A stretch of DNA of 64,000 nucleotides from an uncultured Nitrospiraceae bacterium (GTDB taxonomy: Bacteria; Nitrospirota; Thermodesulfovibrionia; Thermodesulfovibrionales; SM23-35). Position numbers and translations under genes: made by a program. The stretch spans positions 512,001-576,000 of the forward strand of contig CAVSHB010000002.1 of NCBI GenBank assembly GCA_963727775.1. The letters are read 5' to 3'. Under the pieces are notes generated by a model. It saw only the letters and a list, made by a program, of their open reading frames with translations. It had not been told where the DNA came from and made no database searches. Positions 33,330 through 44,405 of the stretch are shown piece by piece; the first letter of the stretch is position 1; every line of letters begins with the position of its first letter.

Positions 33330-33490
33330 CAGTTATCCCGGATACTCTATATATCAATAAAGAATAGCAATATTATAGAATTTTAAGCCTCCTATCAGTA
33401 TTCAGCTCGTTCTGCGTAAATAAATTATACCCATATTAATACCCATATATTGGTATTGCTATGTTAGCCTATCTATGGTATAGTGGACAT

Positions 33491-33778
33491 ATGAGGAAAG
33501 TCCGTTTTGAATGGGATGAGCAGAAAGATAAGGAAAACCAAGCGAAACACAATATCGCTTTTTCATTAGCTCAACATGCTTTTCTTGATCCCAACCGTGT
33601 GATAGTTGAAGATGTTAATCATAGCACAGAAGAGGAACGATTTTACTGCATTGGCCGCGTAGGTGATGGCATAATGACCGTAAGGTTTTCTTATAGAGGT
33701 AACGTTATCCGCAGCCATGGTGCGGGATATTGGAGAAAAGGGAGGAAAATATATGAAGACCAAAATAAAGTACACTGA
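33491..33778 (+). CDS. BrnT family toxin
   Basis: FEWDEQK-x-x-x-N-x-x-KH, HS-x-x-EER, VIR; start at MRKVRFEWD. Confidence 0.85.
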   Translation: MRKVRFEWDEQKDKENQAKHNIAFSLAQHAFLDPNRVIVEDVNHSTEEERFYCIGRVGDGIMTVRFSYRGNVIRSHGAGYWRKGRKIYEDQNKVH

Positions 33779-33992
33779 AGAACCACTGGGAGAATTGAGG
33801 ATCGTTAAGGATTTTCTTCCTAGACCGGAACAGTTAGCATTGAAGGAAGAAAACGTCAAGATTACAATTTCCCTGAAGAAATCAAGCATTGAATTTTTCA
33901 AAAAAAAGGCTAAAGAGCAGCATACGTCGTATCAGAAAATGATCCGTCGGCTTGTAGATTGGTATACCTCACAACATCAAAAGAACGCATAA
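33753..33992 (+). CDS. BrnA/CopG-like antitoxin
   Basis: DFLP-x-PE-x-L, KITISL, FFK, YQKMIR; overlaps the toxin, GGAGG RBS. Confidence 0.8.
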   Translation: MKTKIKYTEEPLGELRIVKDFLPRPEQLALKEENVKITISLKKSSIEFFKKKAKEQHTSYQKMIRRLVDWYTSQHQKNA

Positions 33993-34122: not shown

Positions 34123-35739
34123 ATGACAGAAGAGACCACGGATTTCCTCATCATCGGGAGCGGCGTCGCGGGGCTCAGGGCCGCTATAGAGCTTGCGCCG
34201 CACGGGAACGTCCTCGTCGTAACAAAAGACAGGACCGCGGAAAGCAGCACCGAATATGCGCAGGGTGGAATCGCTGTAGCGCTGAGTGATGAAGACGAGG
34301 TCGGTATCCACTTCGAAGATACATTAAGAGCAGGTGACGGGCTTTGCAGGGAAGACGCCGTAAAAATACTCGTTGAAGAAGGACCTGAAAGGATACTCGA
34401 ACTCATATCATGGGGGGCCGAGTTTGACAAGGAAGGGACAAAGCTTGATTTTACTATGGAGGCCGCTCATTCAAGGAAGAGGGTGCTCCACGCGCACGGT
34501 GATTCCACCGGGAAAGAGCTTGAAAGGGCGCTGCTCAGTAAGGTCCGGTCATTCCCCTCCGTTAAGAAATATCCCTTTGCCTTTACGGAAGCCCTCATCG
34601 TAAATGATGGGAAGTGCTGCGGGGCAAATATCCTGGCCGGCGGCGAGACAATCGCTCTATTCGCAAAGGCGACAATTCTTGCTACGGGCGGCAGCGGTCA
34701 GATATTTTCGAAGACGACAAACCCTGCGGTAGCAACCGGAGACGGAATGGCCATTGCTTTTCGGGCGGGTGCCATCCTTAAGGACCTGGAATTTATCCAG
34801 TTCCACCCTACAGTCCTTTTTGCTCCGTCTGCCCCACAGTTTTTGTTGAGTGAAGCGATGAGAGGGGAAGGAGCAGTTTTAAGGAATATTTACAGAGAGA
34901 CATTTATGAAAGATTATCACCCCGATGCCGAGCTTGCGCCGAGGGATATAGTCACAAGGGCAATATTGTCACAGATGGTAAGGACAAAAAGCGCTCATGT
35001 TTACCTGGACCTTACTCATCTTAATGCGGATTTTATAAAGAACAGGTTCCCGAGGATTTATTCAACCTGTCTGCAATATGACATAGACATTACCAAAGAG
35101 CTCGTCCCGGTATCTCCTGCCGCCCATTATATTATGGGTGGAGTGGAAACGGACACGGACGGCGCTACGAGTATCGGAGGACTCTACGCAGCCGGTGAGG
35201 TCGCGTGCACCGGCGTGCACGGCGCCAACAGACTTGCTTCAAATAGTCTCCTTGAAGGGCTTGTCTTTGGAGCGAGGGCGGGAAAAGCCTCGGCTGAATA
35301 CGGATTGAGGGTTACGGCCGGCATGTTGCAGCATTCAGCGGCTGTCCTCAGTAAAGATGAAATGTCCCCGGATTTTCCGCGTGCAAGGGAAAGACTTCAT
35401 GCGCCGAATTTTAATTTTGACATGGAAGAGATAAGGCATTCATTAAGGAAAATAATGTGGGAGAGGGCGGGGATAATAAGGTGTGAGGAATCTCTGGGGG
35501 AAGCGAGGAAAAAACTTGCTGAATGGTCGTTTATCCTCAGCCGGGAATTTGATAAAAGGCGTGAACTCGAGCTGAAGAATATGCTTGAATTATCAATGCT
35601 GATAACGGAGTCTGCCAGTCTGAGGAGGGGCAGTGTCGGCGCGCACTACAGGTCTGATTTCCCGCAAAAAGGCGCGGGCTGGGAAAAGCATATAACTTGC
35701 AAAAAGGAAACAGAAGGAGTTGCCTGTGAGTTTGTTTAA
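34123..35739 (+). CDS. nadB: L-aspartate oxidase
   Basis: GSGVAGL, AQGGIA, EAAHS, QFHPT, LAPRDIV, HGANRLASNSLLE; start at MTEETT. Confidence 0.95.
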   Translation: MTEETTDFLIIGSGVAGLRAAIELAPHGNVLVVTKDRTAESSTEYAQGGIAVALSDEDEVGIHFEDTLRAGDGLCREDAVKILVEEGPERILELISWGAEFDKEGTKLDFTMEAAHSRKRVLHAHGDSTGKELERALLSKVRSFPSVKKYPFAFTEALIVNDGKCCGANILAGGETIALFAKATILATGGSGQIFSKTTNPAVATGDGMAIAFRAGAILKDLEFIQFHPTVLFAPSAPQFLLSEAMRGEGAVLRNIYRETFMKDYHPDAELAPRDIVTRAILSQMVRTKSAHVYLDLTHLNADFIKNRFPRIYSTCLQYDIDITKELVPVSPAAHYIMGGVETDTDGATSIGGLYAAGEVACTGVHGANRLASNSLLEGLVFGARAGKASAEYGLRVTAGMLQHSAAVLSKDEMSPDFPRARERLHAPNFNFDMEEIRHSLRKIMWERAGIIRCEESLGEARKKLAEWSFILSREFDKRRELELKNMLELSMLITESASLRRGSVGAHYRSDFPQKGAGWEKHITCKKETEGVACEFV

Positions 35740-37150
35740 TAAGAAACAGAGAAAGGCAAAGATAATCTGCACCATCGGACCAGCATCGGCGAATAGAGAG
35801 ATTATCTCCTCCTTAATAAAGAACGGGATGGACGTTGCACGGTTAAATTTTTCTCATGGAGACCATGCTGCTCATCAGAAAAGCATAGAGCTTATCCGCG
35901 ATATTTCCGGGAAATACGATAAGCCGGTTGCAATACTGCAAGATCTTCAGGGGGTGAAGATCAGGGCGGGACGTATCGAAGGAGGCGCTATTGAACTGAA
36001 AAAAGGCGGGAAACTTCTCCTGATGCCCGGCGATGGCATCGGGAATCAGGACCGGATATTTATTTCTTATCCCGCGCTTCTGAAGGACGTTAAGAAGGGA
36101 GACGGAATCCTCCTGGACGACGGCCTGATCCAGCTTGCCGTTATCGGAAAGGCAATAAACGCCTTGAGGACAAAGGTAATAGAAGGGGGTACATTAAGAG
36201 ACAGAAAGGGGGTCAATTTCCCCGGGCTGAAATTGTCCGTCAGATCGTTTACCGCAAAGGACAAAGAGGACCTGCTGTTTGGAATTCATATGGGAATAGA
36301 TTACGTCGCCATATCTTTTGTGCGGGAGGCCGGTGATATAAGAAAGGTCAGAGATTTGCTTAAAAGAAAGAATCAGCATGTCCCAATCATTGCGAAAATA
36401 GAGAAGCCCGAGGCATTGGATAATATTGATGAAATACTCTCAGAGGCTGACGGAATAATGATAGCAAGGGGAGACCTCGGCGTGGAGATGCCCCCTGAAG
36501 AAGTCCCGCTGATTCAGAAAGGGCTGATTGAAAAGGCCAACAACAAAGGTAAGACCGTGATCACCGCAACACAAATGCTCGAATCAATGACGGAACATCT
36601 TAGGCCGACAAGAGCGGAGGCAACGGACGTCGCCAATGCGGTGCTTGACGGGACAGATGCGTTAATGCTCTCTGCTGAAACGGCAACCGGGAATTACCCT
36701 GTTGAGACGGTAAGAATGATGGACAGGATTATACGGCATACAGAGTATATGAAGGCGGGCGCGGCTTCATATACGCGTGGCAATACATATGCAGAAGCTA
36801 CTGCGGATGCGGCCTGCAGGGCTGCCGAGGATATAGATGCAAAAGTGCTGGTTGCCTTTACCCAATCGGGTTTTACTGCAAGGCTTTTGTCGAAGTTCAG
36901 ACCCGGAGTCCCGATTATTGCTTTTGCCCCTGATGAAAAAATAAGAAACAGGGGATGCATCTATTGGGGAGTCACGCCGAAAATAATGAAGCTGCCCGCA
37001 ACTACTGACGAGATGATATCCGAAGTGGAAAGGCTGCTGGTGAAGGAGCATATTGTGAGAAAAGGCGACAGCATCGTAATTACGTCGAGTTCGCCGTTAT
37101 CAACGCAAGGAAAGACTAATTTCATGAAACTCCACAGGATAGAAGAATAA
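35720..37150 (+). CDS. pyk: Pyruvate kinase
   Basis: [43 protein letters not shown]. Confidence 0.97.
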
Positions 37151-37172
37151 AATTGTATTATATCGAGGAGAG

Positions 37173-39173
37173 ATGAATATCTTCAAAAAATCGGATGACA
37201 AACAACAGCTTGCCGCCATAGAAGAATTCCGGCAAAAGATCGCCTCGGCAAATATGCCGCCCAATGTCCTGCAGATCGCCGAGAAAGAACTTGATATGCT
37301 GTCGAAGATAAGCCCGGCAACAGCGGAATATACAATAAGTCTCACTTATATTGATTATCTGGTCGGCCTTCCCTGGAACAAAAAGACATCCGACAATCTC
37401 GATCTCGAAAGGGCCGAAAGTATTTTGAATGAAAGGCATTATGGCCTGAGTGAAGTCAAGGAAAGGATCATCGAGCACCTGGCGGTCAAGATACTGGTGA
37501 TGAACAAAAGACCCGTGATCCTGGTGGTTGATGATGAGGAGATTGCGAGGAACAATCTTGAGCATATCCTGGAAAAAGAAGACTATACGGTGGTCGTCGC
37601 AAAAAACGGGATGGAGGCCGTTGAAAAGATAGAGACCTCTGTTTTTGATGTTGTCCTGACCGATCTTAAGATGGAAAAAGTCAACGGGATCGACGTTCTT
37701 GAAAAGACAAAAAGCAAATATCCGGACACACAGGTCATTATGATTACCGCTTATGCAGCGGTTGATACGGCCATAGAGGCCATGAAAAGAGGTGCGTTCC
37801 ATTATATCGCAAAACCGTTCAGGCTTGAAGAGGTAAGATCGACCGTTAAACAGGCGCTTGACAGGAAGCTTTCTTCGGTTTCCGCAAAGGGATCTATCCT
37901 TTGTTTCTCAGGTCCTCCAGGTACCGGCAAGACTTCGCTGGGCAAGTCCGTTGCGGAGGCTTTGGGTAGAAAATTCGCGAGGATTTCGGTTGGAGGTATG
38001 AAAGACGAGGCCGAGATAAGAGGCCATAGGAGGACATACGCCGGCGCGATGCCCGGACGGATCATCGAAGAAATCCGCCGCGCGGAGTTTTCCAACCCCG
38101 TCATCATGCTGGATGAAGCAGACAAAATCGGTCAGGATTTTAAAGGGGATCCCGCTTCTGCATTGCTGGAGGTCCTCGATCCGGAGCAGAACCGGAGTTT
38201 CATCGACCATTACCTGGACGTGCCGTTTGATCTTTCAAATGTCATGTTTATTGTGACGGCCAATATTGCAGACAATATCCAGGAACCCCTCAGGGACCGC
38301 ATGGAAATAATAGATTTCTCCGGTTATACGGAAGATGAAAAAACGAAGATAGCGATGCGCCACCTGGTACCTAAACAGATCCGGGAACAGGGACTGTCGG
38401 ATTATCCGCCTGAATTTGACGTTGAGGCAGTAGTTAAGGTAATCAACGATTATACCAGGGAGGCCGGCACAAGGAACCTTGAAAGGCAGATTTCCACTAT
38501 CTGCCGGAAGATTGCGACGGAGTTTGTACATCACAGAGAAACGAAACGGAGTATTAAGGTGACACCGGAGCTGGTCCAGAGGTTTTTAGGCCCGAGAAGG
38601 TATTACCTTGAGGTCGCGGATGAAAAGAATAAGGTCGGTGTTGTGACGGGTCTCGTATGGACCGAGGCAGGCGGGGATATAATCTTTGTAGAGGCGGCGC
38701 GGATGAAAGGCGGGAGAGACCTCATCCTCACCGGGTCGCTCGGAAACGTTATGCGCGAATCCGCCCAGGCGGCCTTAAGCTATATACGTAGCAACGCCGC
38801 TTTTTTCAATATCCCGGAAGATGTGTTCGAGAATAGCGATATACACATCCACGTCCCTGCCGGAGCCATTCCGAAGGACGGCCCTTCCGCCGGCGTTACA
38901 ATAGCGGCTTCCCTCATCTCGCTTTTAAAGGGAAGTCCCGCAAGACGCGACGTCGCGATTTCAGGCGAGATAACCTTGAGCGGCCGGATACTTCCGGTCG
39001 GAGGGGTCAAAGAAAAATTGCTTGCAGCGCGGCGGGCAGGGGTCAGGGTTGTAATATTGCCTTTCAAAAATAAAGTGGATGTAGAAAATCTCGCCGGGGA
39101 TGTTAAAGCCGGATTGGAAATCTTCCTTGTGGACAAGATAGAAGAGATTGTTGATAGGGTGCTGACAAAGTAA
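37173..39173 (+). CDS. lon: Lon protease variant lacking the N-terminal domain, with an internal receiver (REC) domain
   Basis: [49 protein letters not shown] (VVDDE, LTDLKM, ITAY, AKPF) at about 37510-37870. Confidence 0.93.
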
Positions 39174-39240
39174 CTTCACTCTGAAATCTGTGGCTTTTAC
39201 TCTGCCGGCACCTTACCAACAATCTCTTCTGCGGTCTGTT

Positions 39241-39420
39241 TTATTGCCTTTGTATACCGGGGGCCCTGAGTTCTTTTCTGCTCCTGGCCGCAGGCGATAT
39301 TCGGTCTGTTTTTTGCGGTTGTGCCTGTCCCAGCAATTCTCTGGCGGTGTTGAAATCCCCTTCTTCCGCAAAGGCCGCTGCTGCGAACATTGTTTCTAAC
39401 TTTTTTGCTAATCCTTTCAT
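39241..39420 (-). CDS. Small protein (59 aa) with AAAFAEEG motif
   Basis: MKGLAKKLETMFAAAAFAEEGDFNTARELLGQAQPQKTDRISPAARSRKELRAPGIQRQ*; just under the ORF-track cutoff; fills the gap behind a sigma-54-like promoter. Confidence 0.7.
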   Translation of the reverse strand: MKGLAKKLETMFAAAAFAEEGDFNTARELLGQAQPQKTDRISPAARSRKELRAPGIQRQ

Positions 39421-39450
39421 ATCTATTCTACTTTCTGACCTGTTATATAC

Positions 39451-39466
39451 TCATTTTTCATGCCAG
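39451..39466 (-). promoter_or_regulatory. Sigma-54-like -24/-12 promoter
   Basis: Minus strand CTGGCATGAAAAATGA: GG-N10-GA (GC to GA variant), 30 bp upstream of the small ORF. Confidence 0.5.
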
Positions 39467-39544
39467 CATTTTTATTGTTATGTAACATATTGTTTAATAT
39501 TATTTTATTTGGATTGTGGGACATGCCGGCCTTCAATACAGACT

Positions 39545-39561
39545 TGATGCACAATGCAACA
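39545..39561. promoter_or_regulatory. Candidate enhancer-binding-protein upstream site
   Basis: Near-palindrome TGATGCA-CAA-TGCAACA about 80 bp upstream of the sigma-54-like promoter. Confidence 0.4.
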
Positions 39562-39697
39562 AAACCGCCGGTCACAATTTTCAAGGGGAGCATGGGGAGT
39601 AAAGACCGGTATCCTACTAAGCGGTTTTCGTACTATTACCTACTGTGTTGCAGAAAAAAGGTTAAGCATTGCTTTTTGCAATAGGAGGGTGTAAAAT

Positions 39698-41203
39698 TTG
39701 AATATGTTCAGATATAAGCCTAGCATAAGGAAAAAAATCATATTCGGATATTATGCCGGGATCGCCGTAATCATCTGGCTTTCTCTGTTTACCGTTATAG
39801 AGCTTTGGTATATAGAGAAAAAGGTGCAGTTCGGAGACGTCGTTACTGAATTCTTCGATACTACTCTTGAAATGAGGAGGTTCGAAAAAAATTTCTTTTT
39901 ATACGAAAAAAATGAAGACTATCTGGAAAATATGCAATACGTTGTGAAGGCACAGAACATACTCGACAAAAATATTAAGGGATATAAAGGGCTCGTAATC
40001 GCCCAGCAATTGGACATACTGCATGAGGACCTTAATGAATACGGATCGTTGATGGAGCGGTTCGCCGTGCTTGGCGGGAACAATGTCGACGTTAAGTCAA
40101 ATTTGGAGAAAGCGATACGGGCAAAGGGCAAGGAGATCATAACGATTTCCGAAGAAGTCTCAAAGATCGAGAAAGAAAGGCTCCAGGCATTGTTGAATAA
40201 AACCCGGAAGGTGCTCATCTTCTCGTTTATCTCCCTCTCTCTGTTGGGGATTGCAATAGGTCAGCTTCTGTCGAGGATGGTAGTAAAACCCTTGAAGGCG
40301 CTGGAAGAAAGGATGAAGCTGATATCAGAGGGGAAACTCGAGACCGTGTCGATAAAGTCAAAGGACCAGGAGATCGTGTCACTTACAAACGCCTTCAACA
40401 AAATGCTGAAGGAACTCGAAGTGAGACGGAAACATCTTGTCCAGAGAGAAAAGCTTGCATCGCTCGGGACATTGCTGTCAGGTGTCGCCCATGAGCTAAA
40501 CAACCCGTTGTCAAATATCTCATCCTCGTGCCAGATACTCATCGAAGAATTCGGCGACCCCGATATTGAATATCAGAAGGAGCTTCTCGGGCAGATCGAC
40601 GAACAGACGGACAGGGCAAAAAATATTGTCCGGTCATTGCTGGATTTTTCGAGGGACAAGGACTTCAAGAAGGAATACCTGCCGCTGAAGAAGATTTTTG
40701 AAGAGACAATCCTGTTCATTAGAGGTGAAATCCCGTCGAAGGTGCAAACCGTCCTCGATATCCCGGACGATATTGTTGTTTTTGCCGACAAGCAGAGGCT
40801 CGAACAGGCATTTTTGAACCTGATAAAAAACGCCGTCGATTCCATCCCGGACGAAGGCGGCGTGGTCATTAAGGCGAGAAAGCGGGCTTTCAGACCTGAG
40901 CAAGGAGAGAAAGCAGCGGGGTGTGTTTATGAAAGATACAAGGGGAAGTGCACAGGCACCTGCCCTTCTGAAGAGGACACTGTCGATATCGAGATCAGCG
41001 ACACAGGGGAAGGGATCCCTCCGGAGGTCCTTTCGAGAATATTCGACCCGTTTTTTACCACAAAGGATGTCGGAAAGGGTTCAGGTCTCGGACTTTTTAT
41101 AGTGCAGGAAATAATAGAAGAGCATGACGGCTGTATCGGGGTCGACAGCGAGTTCGGGAAAGGGACTTCTTTTTTAATAATATTACCTGTGAAGGAGCGA
41201 TGA
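39698..41203 (+). CDS. HAMP-domain sensor histidine kinase
   Basis: Two TMs flanking a periplasmic domain (RRFEKNFFLY), HAMP, AHELNNPL, DTGEGI, GSGLGL; start TTG 39698 or ATG 39704. Confidence 0.93.
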   Translation: MNMFRYKPSIRKKIIFGYYAGIAVIIWLSLFTVIELWYIEKKVQFGDVVTEFFDTTLEMRRFEKNFFLYEKNEDYLENMQYVVKAQNILDKNIKGYKGLVIAQQLDILHEDLNEYGSLMERFAVLGGNNVDVKSNLEKAIRAKGKEIITISEEVSKIEKERLQALLNKTRKVLIFSFISLSLLGIAIGQLLSRMVVKPLKALEERMKLISEGKLETVSIKSKDQEIVSLTNAFNKMLKELEVRRKHLVQREKLASLGTLLSGVAHELNNPLSNISSSCQILIEEFGDPDIEYQKELLGQIDEQTDRAKNIVRSLLDFSRDKDFKKEYLPLKKIFEETILFIRGEIPSKVQTVLDIPDDIVVFADKQRLEQAFLNLIKNAVDSIPDEGGVVIKARKRAFRPEQGEKAAGCVYERYKGKCTGTCPSEEDTVDIEISDTGEGIPPEVLSRIFDPFFTTKDVGKGSGLGLFIVQEIIEEHDGCIGVDSEFGKGTSFLIILPVKER

Positions 41204-42567
41204 GCATGCAAGGCGCAATAAAGATATTAATTGTGGATGACGAAAGGGTAGCTCTCAAAAACCTTGAGCATGTTATGAAAAAAGAGGGTTATGACGTGAC
41301 AGGGACTGAAAGCGGGCAGAACGCCCTGAAGCTCCTTGAAGACCGGCAATTTGAAGTTGTGCTTACTGATTTGCGGATGGAAAAGGTCGACGGGATGCAG
41401 ATACTGAAAAAATGCCGTGAGCTTTATCCTGACGCCGAGGTGATAATGATAACCGGTTATGCAACGCTTGAGACCGCAGTCGAAGCCATGAAGAAAGGCG
41501 CTTTCCACTACGTTGCAAAGCCGTTCAAACTGGACGTGGTACGAAACGTCGTCAAGGAAGCCGTTGAGAAAGTGAGACTAAAGATGGAAAACAGGCTACT
41601 CAGGGAGCAGATAGAAACTTATCAGGGAAAGGTAAAGATTATCACACAGGACGGTAATATGCAGAGGCTTCTTGATACTGCAAGGCAGATCGCGCCTACC
41701 GATTGCAATGTCCTCCTCAGCGGCGAAAGCGGCACCGGAAAAGAGTTGTTTGCAAAGTATATCCATTTGAACAGCAGCCGCACGGAAGGGCCTTTTTTTG
41801 CCATAAATTGCGGGGCGTTCACAGAGGAGCTTCTGTCTAATGAACTCTTCGGCCATGAAAAGGGCGCTTTTACCGGAGCGATGAGCATGAAGCGCGGGTT
41901 GGTTGAAATGGCGTCAGGCGGTACATTGTTTCTTGATGAAATAACCGAAATGCCGCCTTCAATGCAGGTAAAACTTCTGAGAGTCATTCAGGAAAAGGAA
42001 GTCCTGAGGGTCGGCGGAACAGAATCCTTAAAGGTAGATGTCAGATTTATTGCGGCAAGCAACAGGGACATTCATGACGCTATAAAGAACGGAAGGTTCC
42101 GGCAGGACCTATATTTCAGACTGAATGTCGTTTCCCTGCATATTCCGCCTTTGTCGGAAAGAAGGGACGATATCCCGCTCTTGAGCTATTATTTCCTGAA
42201 GAAATATGCGGCCGTAATGAAAAAAGATGTTACCGAGATATCCGAGGACGCAATGGGTCTGCTCATGAATTATGATCTGCCCGGCAACGTCAGGGAGCTT
42301 GAAAATATCATTGAAAGAGGAGTTGCCCTTGCCAACGGGAGAACCATAGAGATAGCCCATCTGCCCGAAGACCTGAGAGAACTGAGGATACAGACATTCA
42401 GAAAGAAGGAAGGCAAGATCCCTTCCCTTGAAGACCAGGAGACGGCCTACATAAAATGGGTCTTAAATGAGGTCGGCGGCAATAAAACCATCGCGGCCCA
42501 GATATTGGGAATAGACAGGGTATCACTCTGGAGGAAGCTCAAGAAATACGGACTGGACCCTGAATGA
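41200..42567 (+). CDS. Sigma-54-dependent response regulator (NtrC family)
   Basis: REC, GESGTGKE, GAFTGA, PGNVRELEN, Fis HTH; overlaps the kinase stop. Confidence 0.95.
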   Translation: MSMQGAIKILIVDDERVALKNLEHVMKKEGYDVTGTESGQNALKLLEDRQFEVVLTDLRMEKVDGMQILKKCRELYPDAEVIMITGYATLETAVEAMKKGAFHYVAKPFKLDVVRNVVKEAVEKVRLKMENRLLREQIETYQGKVKIITQDGNMQRLLDTARQIAPTDCNVLLSGESGTGKELFAKYIHLNSSRTEGPFFAINCGAFTEELLSNELFGHEKGAFTGAMSMKRGLVEMASGGTLFLDEITEMPPSMQVKLLRVIQEKEVLRVGGTESLKVDVRFIAASNRDIHDAIKNGRFRQDLYFRLNVVSLHIPPLSERRDDIPLLSYYFLKKYAAVMKKDVTEISEDAMGLLMNYDLPGNVRELENIIERGVALANGRTIEIAHLPEDLRELRIQTFRKKEGKIPSLEDQETAYIKWVLNEVGGNKTIAAQILGIDRVSLWRKLKKYGLDPE

Positions 42568-42590: not shown

Positions 42591-44405
42591 TTACATATCC
42601 ACCCTTGTCATGACCCCGTGGAGTTTATATGGCGGCAGTTTGTAGAATTGAACGAACGCCGGGGTGAGCTTCTTGATAAACGAGAATATTTTCCAGACCG
42701 GATTTTCCGTCACGATGTCCTCAAGCCCGTAAAAAATCGTCTTTTCGTCGATCCCTGATTCCTTCAGGAGATCTTCAATATCAGGCACCTCCATATACCC
42801 CACCTGAATTTCGAATACCCGCAAGCCGTGCCCGGGGTCTTCTTTAAAAAAGCCTGTCAGACCAAAGGGATCATCCCGCTTTATTATGGAAACCATGATA
42901 TTTTCTTCATAAAGGATATTATTTACGAACATGCTTCGTATCATAAAAGGAGGTATCTCATTGGGATCCTTCAGAAAAAAGAGGGAAACCCCTCTTAATT
43001 TAGGCATGGTTTTGTAAGCAAGATTGTATCTTTCAAGAAAGTTATGAAGCGGCACGGGTTTCAATATTTTATAAAGCCTTTTTTGGCCGCTGGTATAAAT
43101 GATAACGGTGATGAAAGGGAAGGCCCCGATGATAATCGACCAGTAACCCCCGTGAGGTATCTTGTAAAAATTCGACACGAGGAACGCAATATCTACGCAC
43201 GTGACGAGAAATGATGCAATGGCCAGTCCGTTTTTCCTCTTCAGGTGAAAAATCCATGTCATCATGATTCCCGTGAGGGTCATTGTTCCGGTGACCGCCA
43301 AACCGTAGGCGGCGGCAAGCCGGCTGGATTCCCTGAATTCAACCATAATAAACAAAACGGATATGAGAAGAAACCAGTTAACAAAACCTATGTAAATCTG
43401 TGACCTCAATTCGGTGGATGTATAGTCGATCTTGAAAAGCGGCATTATATGGGTGGTTATCCCCTGGTAAACAATCGAGAACATCCCGCTGATCATGGCC
43501 TGAGAGGCTATCACAGTCGCAATAATACTGAGGACCAGGAAGGGTATATACAGTGTCCGGGTGGTATGGAATATCATTTCAAAAAGGACATTCTTAGAAG
43601 CAGGGTGCCCGATGAGGAACGCTCCCTGTCCGAGATAATTGATCAAAAGGGCAACAAATACAAGATACCATGCATGGATGATGGGCTTCCGTCCCAAATG
43701 TCCCATATCGGCATATAACGCCTCACCTCCTGTTGCACAGAGTATGACTTCAGAAAGCACAAAAAATCCTGTGAGGCCGTTTTCATAAAGAAATCTTAAG
43801 GCATAGTATGGGTTTATAGCCCGTATCACAACCGGGGAATCAGCGATTGACATTAAGCCGGAGACAGACAAAGATGTAAACCAAACCAGCATCAAAGGTC
43901 CGAACGCCCAGGACACTTTCTCTGTGCCCTTTTTCTGGAAGGAGAACAGCACTATTGCAATTATCCCGGCGGCAAGAATAAGTAATTCCTGTTTTGTGCC
44001 TTCCAGTCCGGGGATTAAGAGTGATCCCTCAACGGCGCTCAGGATACTGATGGCAGGCGTAATTACACCATCGCCGATGAGCAGGGATATGCCGATAAAA
44101 GAAAGAAAAGATACAAATGCCGCCTTCCTGCCTGACTTGAGCAACGGCACAAGTATTTCCTTAAGGACTATGGTGCCACCCTCACCCTTTTTCCCGAGGC
44201 TCATTGCAAGCCATGCGTACTCAACAGTGACGAGTATTACAAGGGTCCATACTATAAGGGAAAGGACCCCCATTACATGGGCTTCAGTAGGCTTTGTGAG
44301 GAGAAAGATAACCGTCAGTGTATAGATCGGGCTGGTTCCGATATCACCGAAGACAAGGCCAAGGGATTTTATTATTCCTCTGAAAGAAGGCTCTTTGCTG
44401 ATCAT
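42591..44405 (-). CDS. kup: KUP/HAK/KT potassium transporter
   Basis: GDIGTSPIY, GEGG, GDGVITPAIS, EALYADMGHLG, AAAYGLAVTG. Confidence 0.95.
   Translation of the reverse strand: MISKEPSFRGIIKSLGLVFGDIGTSPIYTLTVIFLLTKPTEAHVMGVLSLIVWTLVILVTVEYAWLAMSLGKKGEGGTIVLKEILVPLLKSGRKAAFVSFLSFIGISLLIGDGVITPAISILSAVEGSLLIPGLEGTKQELLILAAGIIAIVLFSFQKKGTEKVSWAFGPLMLVWFTSLSVSGLMSIADSPVVIRAINPYYALRFLYENGLTGFFVLSEVILCATGGEALYADMGHLGRKPIIHAWYLVFVALLINYLGQGAFLIGHPASKNVLFEMIFHTTRTLYIPFLVLSIIATVIASQAMISGMFSIVYQGITTHIMPLFKIDYTSTELRSQIYIGFVNWFLLISVLFIMVEFRESSRLAAAYGLAVTGTMTLTGIMMTWIFHLKRKNGLAIASFLVTCVDIAFLVSNFYKIPHGGYWSIIIGAFPFITVIIYTSGQKRLYKILKPVPLHNFLERYNLAYKTMPKLRGVSLFFLKDPNEIPPFMIRSMFVNNILYEENIMVSIIKRDDPFGLTGFFKEDPGHGLRVFEIQVGYMEVPDIEDLLKESGIDEKTIFYGLEDIVTENPVWKIFSFIKKLTPAFVQFYKLPPYKLHGVMTRVDM

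Follow-up and report, generated by a model that had tools for sequence, protein, structure and literature searches.

What does a Lon protease do with a receiver domain built into its own chain, and which signal would reach it? The gene raising this question (P0001, 37173..39173, + strand) lies in a window of 64,000 nucleotides, the whole stretch of DNA that was analysed, and encodes 666 aa from ATG to TAA. Pfam reports Response_reg at 116-225 (E 5e-30), AAA at 243-380, Lon_lid at 405-458, and Lon_C at 462-665, with zero matches to the Lon N-domain families anywhere on the 666-aa protein. In the alignment to E. coli Lon, residues 17, 108, and 238 correspond to 252, 343, and 347, respectively, and the N-terminus falls at about residue 236; thus, the three-helix bundle is the first element of the chain, and the loop leading from helix alpha0 to the Walker A strand holds the insert. 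According to this alignment and the AlphaFold2 model, the bundle and helix alpha0 take up aa 12-111 (37206..37505, +), and nothing of the N-terminal globular domain or the long helix of Lon precedes aa 12. The inserted receiver follows at aa 115-236 (37515..37880, +; Pfam, homologue alignments, and AlphaFold2 model), then the AAA+ core with the lid at aa 242-458 (37896..38546, +) and the S16 protease domain (38556..39167, +). Between helix alpha0 and Walker A the protein has 136 aa, versus 10 aa in the ordinary Lon of the same genome (807 aa, contig C4).

The functional residues are intact according to the alignment. The receiver has its acidic pair (D120 and D121), the predicted phospho-acceptor D164 (37662-37664, +), T192, and K214-P215; the AAA+ module has Walker A K253, an aromatic pore loop (Y289), Walker B D314/E315, sensor-1 N364, the Arg finger R376, and R434; and the Ser-Lys dyad consists of S572 (38886-38888, +) and K615 (39015-39017, +). 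The AlphaFold2 model (mean pLDDT 82, pTM 0.70) contains a complete receiver fold at aa 115-236; a short, lower-confidence linker joins the last helix of this fold to the Walker A strand. The best fold matches of the model are LonA throughout (7yuh, TM-score 0.91 on target), and of 45 PDB sequences matched at E<=1e-20, not one spans both the receiver and the Lon parts. The first-pass annotation had read the chain as starting at the helical region before the ATPase with no N-terminal substrate domain, as enclosing a complete receiver, and as keeping Walker A/B and the dyad; Pfam, the alignments, and the model bear out all three statements.

As for classification, the protein scores 742.5 for TIGR00763 (lon), above the cut-off of 608.05, and 595.9 for PRK10787, under the cut-off of 891. 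It is LonA-derived but not a canonical LonA, since the N-terminal globular domain and the long helix are missing. The defining trait of LonB proteases is a set of membrane segments lying between the two Walker motifs. A LonB identity was considered and rejected, the insert being a receiver ahead of Walker A and the TIGR00764 (LonB) score being 107 against a cut-off of 516.6. Two further features of the chain were observed. Pore loop 1 (aa 289-291, window 38037-38045) reads Y-A-G where the usual form is Y-V-G, which is a subclade trait (118/119 close homologues vs 1/237 distant ones). An N-terminal hydrophobic-aromatic-basic motif (I-F-K-K here, window 37173-37196), kept in 280 of 318 full-length homologues, is possibly a membrane or partner anchor.

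This architecture has been in print since 2011. Rajeev et al. (PMC3333781) describe DVU3303 as a response regulator 'containing a lon protease' that, with the kinase DVU3304 and the sigma-54 regulator DVU3305, forms a 'three-component system' of Desulfovibrio vulgaris Hildenborough, propose that phosphorylation may be required for DVU3303 activity, and note orthologues in Thermodesulfovibrio and others. The present locus is a member of this DVU3303-type system, so both its architecture and the hypothesis attached to it were published earlier. The case for orthology is built on architecture and neighbours, together with a small gene of 180 nt and a palindrome; DVU3303 by name is not among the listed matches of the homologue searches, where the named relatives are Solidesulfovibrio fructosivorans, Desulfobulbus propionicus, Fundidesulfovibrio, and Megalodesulfovibrio. 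The earlier statement that no experimental characterisation of such a fusion is known agrees with the outcome of paper searches, whose coverage left most subscription journals outside: they returned no biochemistry on the receiver-Lon family.

The odd architecture, together with the TIGR label 'truncation' given to DVU3303 (PMC3333781), might suggest an assembly chimera or a decayed gene fusion. This reading can practically be dismissed. An independent wetland metagenome run yielded a contig of 11,994 bases that covers window 35700-41300 unbroken, with 299 differing letters over 5.6 kb, and because it spans the locus, the receiver-Lon gene is not a misassembly, which answers the refuting condition of a chimeric assembly named in the first-pass annotation. 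The distribution check proposed there gives the same answer: the fusion occurs in 60/201 genomes sampled from the same order and in 21/101 genomes of the class-level sample centred on a deltaproteobacterial genome, and the family is thus common in Nitrospirota and Desulfobacterota. Its active sites are invariant as well. Among 80 related loci, 79 of which have an alignable protein, D120, D121, D164, and K214 are each kept in 79/79, position 192 is T or S in 79/79, and S572 and K615 are found in 74/79 and 73/79, respectively, the misses being mostly truncations. D164, T192 (T or S), and K214 are also invariant in 119 close homologues and in 237 distant ones (42-61% identity). None of the 237 has more than about 150 residues ahead of position 12, and the five with at least 60 extra N-terminal residues probably have over-called starts. 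A profile search of 50% representatives returned mostly multi-receiver proteins; 18 junction-spanning or partial matches were aligned, several of them frameshifted.

A tree of the ATPase-protease core, drawn with a midpoint and no outgroup, splits 27 receiver-Lons from 21 ordinary Lons by a 100/100 branch, and judged by this tree the receiver-Lons are one ancient clade. Among 30 relatives the receiver form was seen in 10, and since 9 of these 10 have an ordinary Lon too, the receiver-Lon is, by gene content, a second, accessory LonA. The presence of both forms in this genome and in those relatives allows a different role, in which the receiver-Lon joins rings of ordinary Lon and lends them phospho-control or inhibits them, and engineered N-domain-less protomers do enter Lon rings (PMC10643698). 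Yet the two cores separated long ago and share only ~55% identity, and every catalytic residue is kept, unlike in a designed inhibitor, which makes mixed rings very improbable.

Two candidate partners, which the first-pass annotation had left out along with a tail-bearing small protein, lie downstream. A membrane sensor histidine kinase with HAMP, HisKA, and HATPase_c domains (39698..41203, +; Pfam and related loci) is the DVU3304 counterpart, and a sigma-54-dependent response regulator with REC, AAA+, and HTH_8 domains (41200..42567, +; Pfam and receiver comparison) is the DVU3305 counterpart. A kinase-like and a regulator-like gene were each found in 53 of the 80 related loci, many of whose contigs are short.

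The receivers themselves point to a common input. Within the genome, the closest matches to the protease receiver are the receivers of the neighbouring sigma-54 regulator (54% identity) and of a hybrid kinase encoded elsewhere (56%). The exact helix-1 specificity positions compared depend on a mapping through OmpR numbering. The pattern A125/N128/H131 occurs in 2 of the 38 other receivers of the genome, namely the same two. Across loci, 36/42 partner regulators have the N128/H131 pair, as do 2/10 sigma-54 regulators that are more distant and 1/34 of the other receivers encoded there. A quick tree of receivers places 24 protease and 19 partner-type receivers apart from 39 others (branch SH-aLRT 96). 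According to PMC2991266, kinase specificity is carried on one face of receiver helix 1. Since the receivers group together and have the kinase-facing residues in common, it is highly probable that the same kinase feeds both the protease and the regulator. The simplest reading of these comparisons is that the regulator's receiver was copied into Lon once and then kept tuned to one kinase.

Some observations on the surroundings are recorded separately. The ATPase domain of the kinase carries a Cys-rich insertion (C-x9-C-x3-C, window about 40900-40990), and a close Cys pair is present in 10/17 of its near orthologues; it is a possible metal or redox input. The kup potassium transporter gene (window 42591-44405, −) converges on the regulator gene, and the kdp operon is also a DVU3305 target in D. 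vulgaris (PMC3333781), but a potassium-uptake link via the neighbouring kup was rejected, kup being found in 0/80 related loci. Scans for sigma-70 promoters and terminators gave results at chance level, and the sequencing runs listed for the locus include none of RNA. Upstream of the protease gene, two small overlapping ORFs of 105 and 91 aa (window 33461-33992) resemble a BrnT/BrnA-type toxin-antitoxin pair.

Even if phosphorylated, the receiver may not gate the motor. It may instead be a docking site for the kinase, the regulator, or a substrate, replacing the lost N-domain, or a phosphate sink tuning the regulator. The insert occupies a loop that is short and variable, its receiver mimics the helix with which the regulator faces the kinase, as a competitor would, and LonA lacking the N-domain is active by itself: in an engineered form of this kind (AAAP, Meiothermus 242-793), ATPase and peptidase activity persist (PMC8087443). 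The insert length, however, is fixed at 135-137 aa in all three homologue sets (79, 119, and 237 proteins), which suggests strict geometric coupling, and family-specific residues are conserved outside the receiver (Y53, G56, E300, R303, and S522); for a phosphate sink, moreover, an intact protease would be unnecessary. Phosphorylation without motor gating is hence regarded as unlikely. Protease activity is probably gated by phosphorylation, with activation likelier than inhibition. The first-pass annotation had proposed exactly such a direct aspartate switch, and with the phosphorylation residues invariant and the helix matching the regulator's this stands as the best reading; the gating itself we infer, and nothing in the sequence gives its sign.

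Regarding the sign, phosphorylation could also switch the protease off, so that regulon products are spared during the signal and cleared once the kinase is silent. This would be a logical reset circuit, and it needs the same conserved residues and shared kinase. The mutant phenotypes of D. vulgaris speak against it. In Trotter et al. 2023 (PMC10102598), DVU3303, 3304, and 3305 have pairwise cofitness >0.9, and under chlorate their mutants gain fitness, whereas loss of the target transporter DVU3299 costs fitness. Kinase and protease mutants thus move alike, where an off-switch would be expected to give opposite signs, unless polarity hides them. The signs fit activation by phosphorylation, since losing the kinase, the protease, or the regulator would each spare the protective transporter module, whose genes have a second regulator, DVU2394 (PMC3333781). 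The cofitness may stem from polar insertions, as lon is the first gene of the D. vulgaris operon. Taken with the fitness data, inhibition by phosphorylation appears improbable, and activation is the reading followed below.

If the protease is switched on, what would it remove? Between the protease and kinase genes, on the opposite strand, lies the gene of a 59-aa protein (39241..39420, −), by size and place the probable DVU3302 counterpart. It has two N-terminal helices with an A-x-F-A-E motif, followed by a low-confidence Arg-rich tail ending in R-K-E-L-R-A-P; it matches no Pfam family, and the ESM Atlas gives unnamed clusters only. The A-x-F-A-E helix, of ~25 residues, has six copies in this genome; apart from small proteins, it is met in Usp-like ones and at the C-terminal tails of single receivers. 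As a protease tag it was rejected, because it is also present in genomes without the protease (71/141 genomes in which no receiver-Lon was found, vs 56/60 with one). Its likely role is docking onto some partner, not the protease, that these proteins have in common.

The tail shows another distribution. Loci chosen by the protease alone contributed 61 short motif proteins (59 loci), whose tails have a median charge of +5, with 50/61 at +4 or more, whereas the best-scoring small motif proteins of genomes in which no protease was found have a median of 0, with 3/30 at +4 or more. Protease loci that lack the small gene encode a membrane-hairpin protein with a long basic tail in 14/18 cases; the corresponding figures are 7/21 for protease loci that have the small gene and 0/18 for protease-less clusters (duplicates were removed and the loci counted manually). 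With all loci taken together, 70/81 protease loci have an Arg-rich tail vs 5/26 protease-less ones; this count leaves out 14 protease loci and 1 protease-less locus having neither gene, some of the protease loci represent one genome twice, and 1 of the 5 is a false pattern match. An early count of 52/60 vs 6/141 genomes, based on top-scoring matches, is weakened by a profile made from protease loci and by its restriction to the best 150 of 412 matches. After correction for the tree, well-supported branches leave 3 independent pairs for the tail-protease link, which falls short of significance (sign test, p 0.5). There are exceptions in both directions: 3 genomes (G163, G193, and G040) keep a basic or intact tail with no protease found, and in one locus with the protease (L036) no tail was seen. 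In two Desulfocapsaceae-type loci (L042 7460-7756 and L046 7081-7377), the gene immediately ahead of the protease encodes 98 aa that start with a hydrophobic stretch and end in an R-P-x-x-R-R-Y tail, a possible third tag carrier. From these patterns, the Arg-rich tail of the 59-aa protein is a candidate degron, and the protein itself a candidate substrate or regulator of the protease. As architecture and hypothesis were already published, what this locus contributes is a candidate substrate through which the 2011 idea can be tested directly.

A palindrome fitting the published DVU3305 binding sites (39546..39560, +) lies between the small gene and the kinase gene, in the divergent promoter where such a site would be expected, and is the sole exact match to the DVU3305-type site in the window. 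With one mismatch allowed there are 5 matches vs 2.15 expected, a count reached by 6/100 shuffles and thus not beyond chance. No match to the site was found ahead of the protease gene, which starts 22 bases past the stop of pyruvate kinase (pyk; window 37150-37173), with nadB before pyk. Neither pyk nor nadB is near the protease in any of the 80 related loci (0/80), and the nadB-pyk-protease order is repeated in an independent close relative, the wetland contig; it represents a lineage-specific rearrangement that may have uncoupled protease transcription from the regulator. With its position behind pyk and no site upstream, the protease may have left the regulator's regulon.

As for the other genes of the system, TauE and Usp genes are each present in 31/80 related loci. 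In this genome a Usp/TauE/Usp-like/small-gene block lies ~120 kb from the protease (L001 10219-15442; G000 C2, about 670-675 kb), adjoining the REC-HisKA-HATPase hybrid kinase whose receiver was compared above, a kinase fragment, two integrase-like genes, and a transposase. It encodes a second small protein with an Arg-rich tail, and the tail of its hairpin protein stops short.

Put together, the account we lean towards, with some reserve, is that of an accessory LonA whose receiver is phosphorylated by the adjacent kinase, which likely switches proteolysis on against tail-bearing substrates. The sensor kinase would phosphorylate the protease at D164 in parallel with the sigma-54 regulator. 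The resulting shift would pass through receiver helix alpha5 directly into the Walker A strand, or would alter ring assembly, and the protease thus activated would remove tail-bearing products of the regulator's operon, so that a single signal would govern how parts of a stress-linked transporter module are made and how they are removed. Regarding substrates, the N-domain-less Meiothermus LonA degrades disordered casein and leaves damaged folded proteins uncut (PMC8087443), and by analogy a narrow set of disordered-tail substrates would be expected. That the protease acts on such tails, of the small or the membrane-hairpin protein, and has no part in general quality control is plausible but short of probable. 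More tentative is the extension in which the kinase-gated Lon reads a portable Arg-rich C-terminal tag (R-x-x-L/M-R type) on regulator-operon products, the tag vanishing with loss of the protease; its carriers would be the 59-aa protein, the membrane-hairpin protein, or a small membrane protein. If gating is true, aspartate phosphorylation within the chain itself would switch an AAA+ protease, and this Lon would choose substrates without an N-domain. It would also offer a simple model of how a receiver drives an AAA+ ring and might serve as an orthogonal, inducible tool for degradation. The family has a stress phenotype in D. vulgaris (PMC10102598).

In comparison with known systems, the locus is closest to DVU3303-3305. 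Both have a receiver and Lon in one chain, with a histidine kinase and a sigma-54 regulator adjacent, and a small gene alongside (180 nt here and 180 nt for DVU3302). The palindrome is a candidate for the published type of regulator site, and most relatives have Usp and TauE-type membrane genes. Unlike in D. vulgaris, the protease gene follows nadB-pyk, the opposite-strand small gene separates it from the kinase gene, and the Usp/TauE block is displaced. With LonA, or endopeptidase La (E. coli, B. subtilis, Meiothermus, and mitochondrial LONP1), the protein shares the three-helix bundle, the AAA+ motifs, and the Ser-Lys dyad; it differs in having no N-terminal globular domain or long helix and ~126 extra residues, the receiver, ahead of Walker A. 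The engineered Meiothermus LonA (PMC8087443) has a nearly identical start point but is a laboratory construct without a receiver.

As for tails, PMC10665427 and PMC11986505 report portable C-terminal tails of the LarA, HspQ, SmiA, and SulA type that bind or activate Lon, and according to the former the N-domain is the presumed reader of such degrons. Such small stress proteins are the closest functional model for the 59-aa neighbour. The SulA/LarA-type degrons end in His and presumably bind at the N-domain, whereas the tail of the 59-aa protein is Arg-rich and the receiver-Lon has no N-domain. Control of proteolysis by aspartate phosphorylation is itself familiar from RssB and CpdR, receiver-type adaptors of ClpXP. 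These are separate proteins acting in trans, whereas here the receiver lies within the protease chain.
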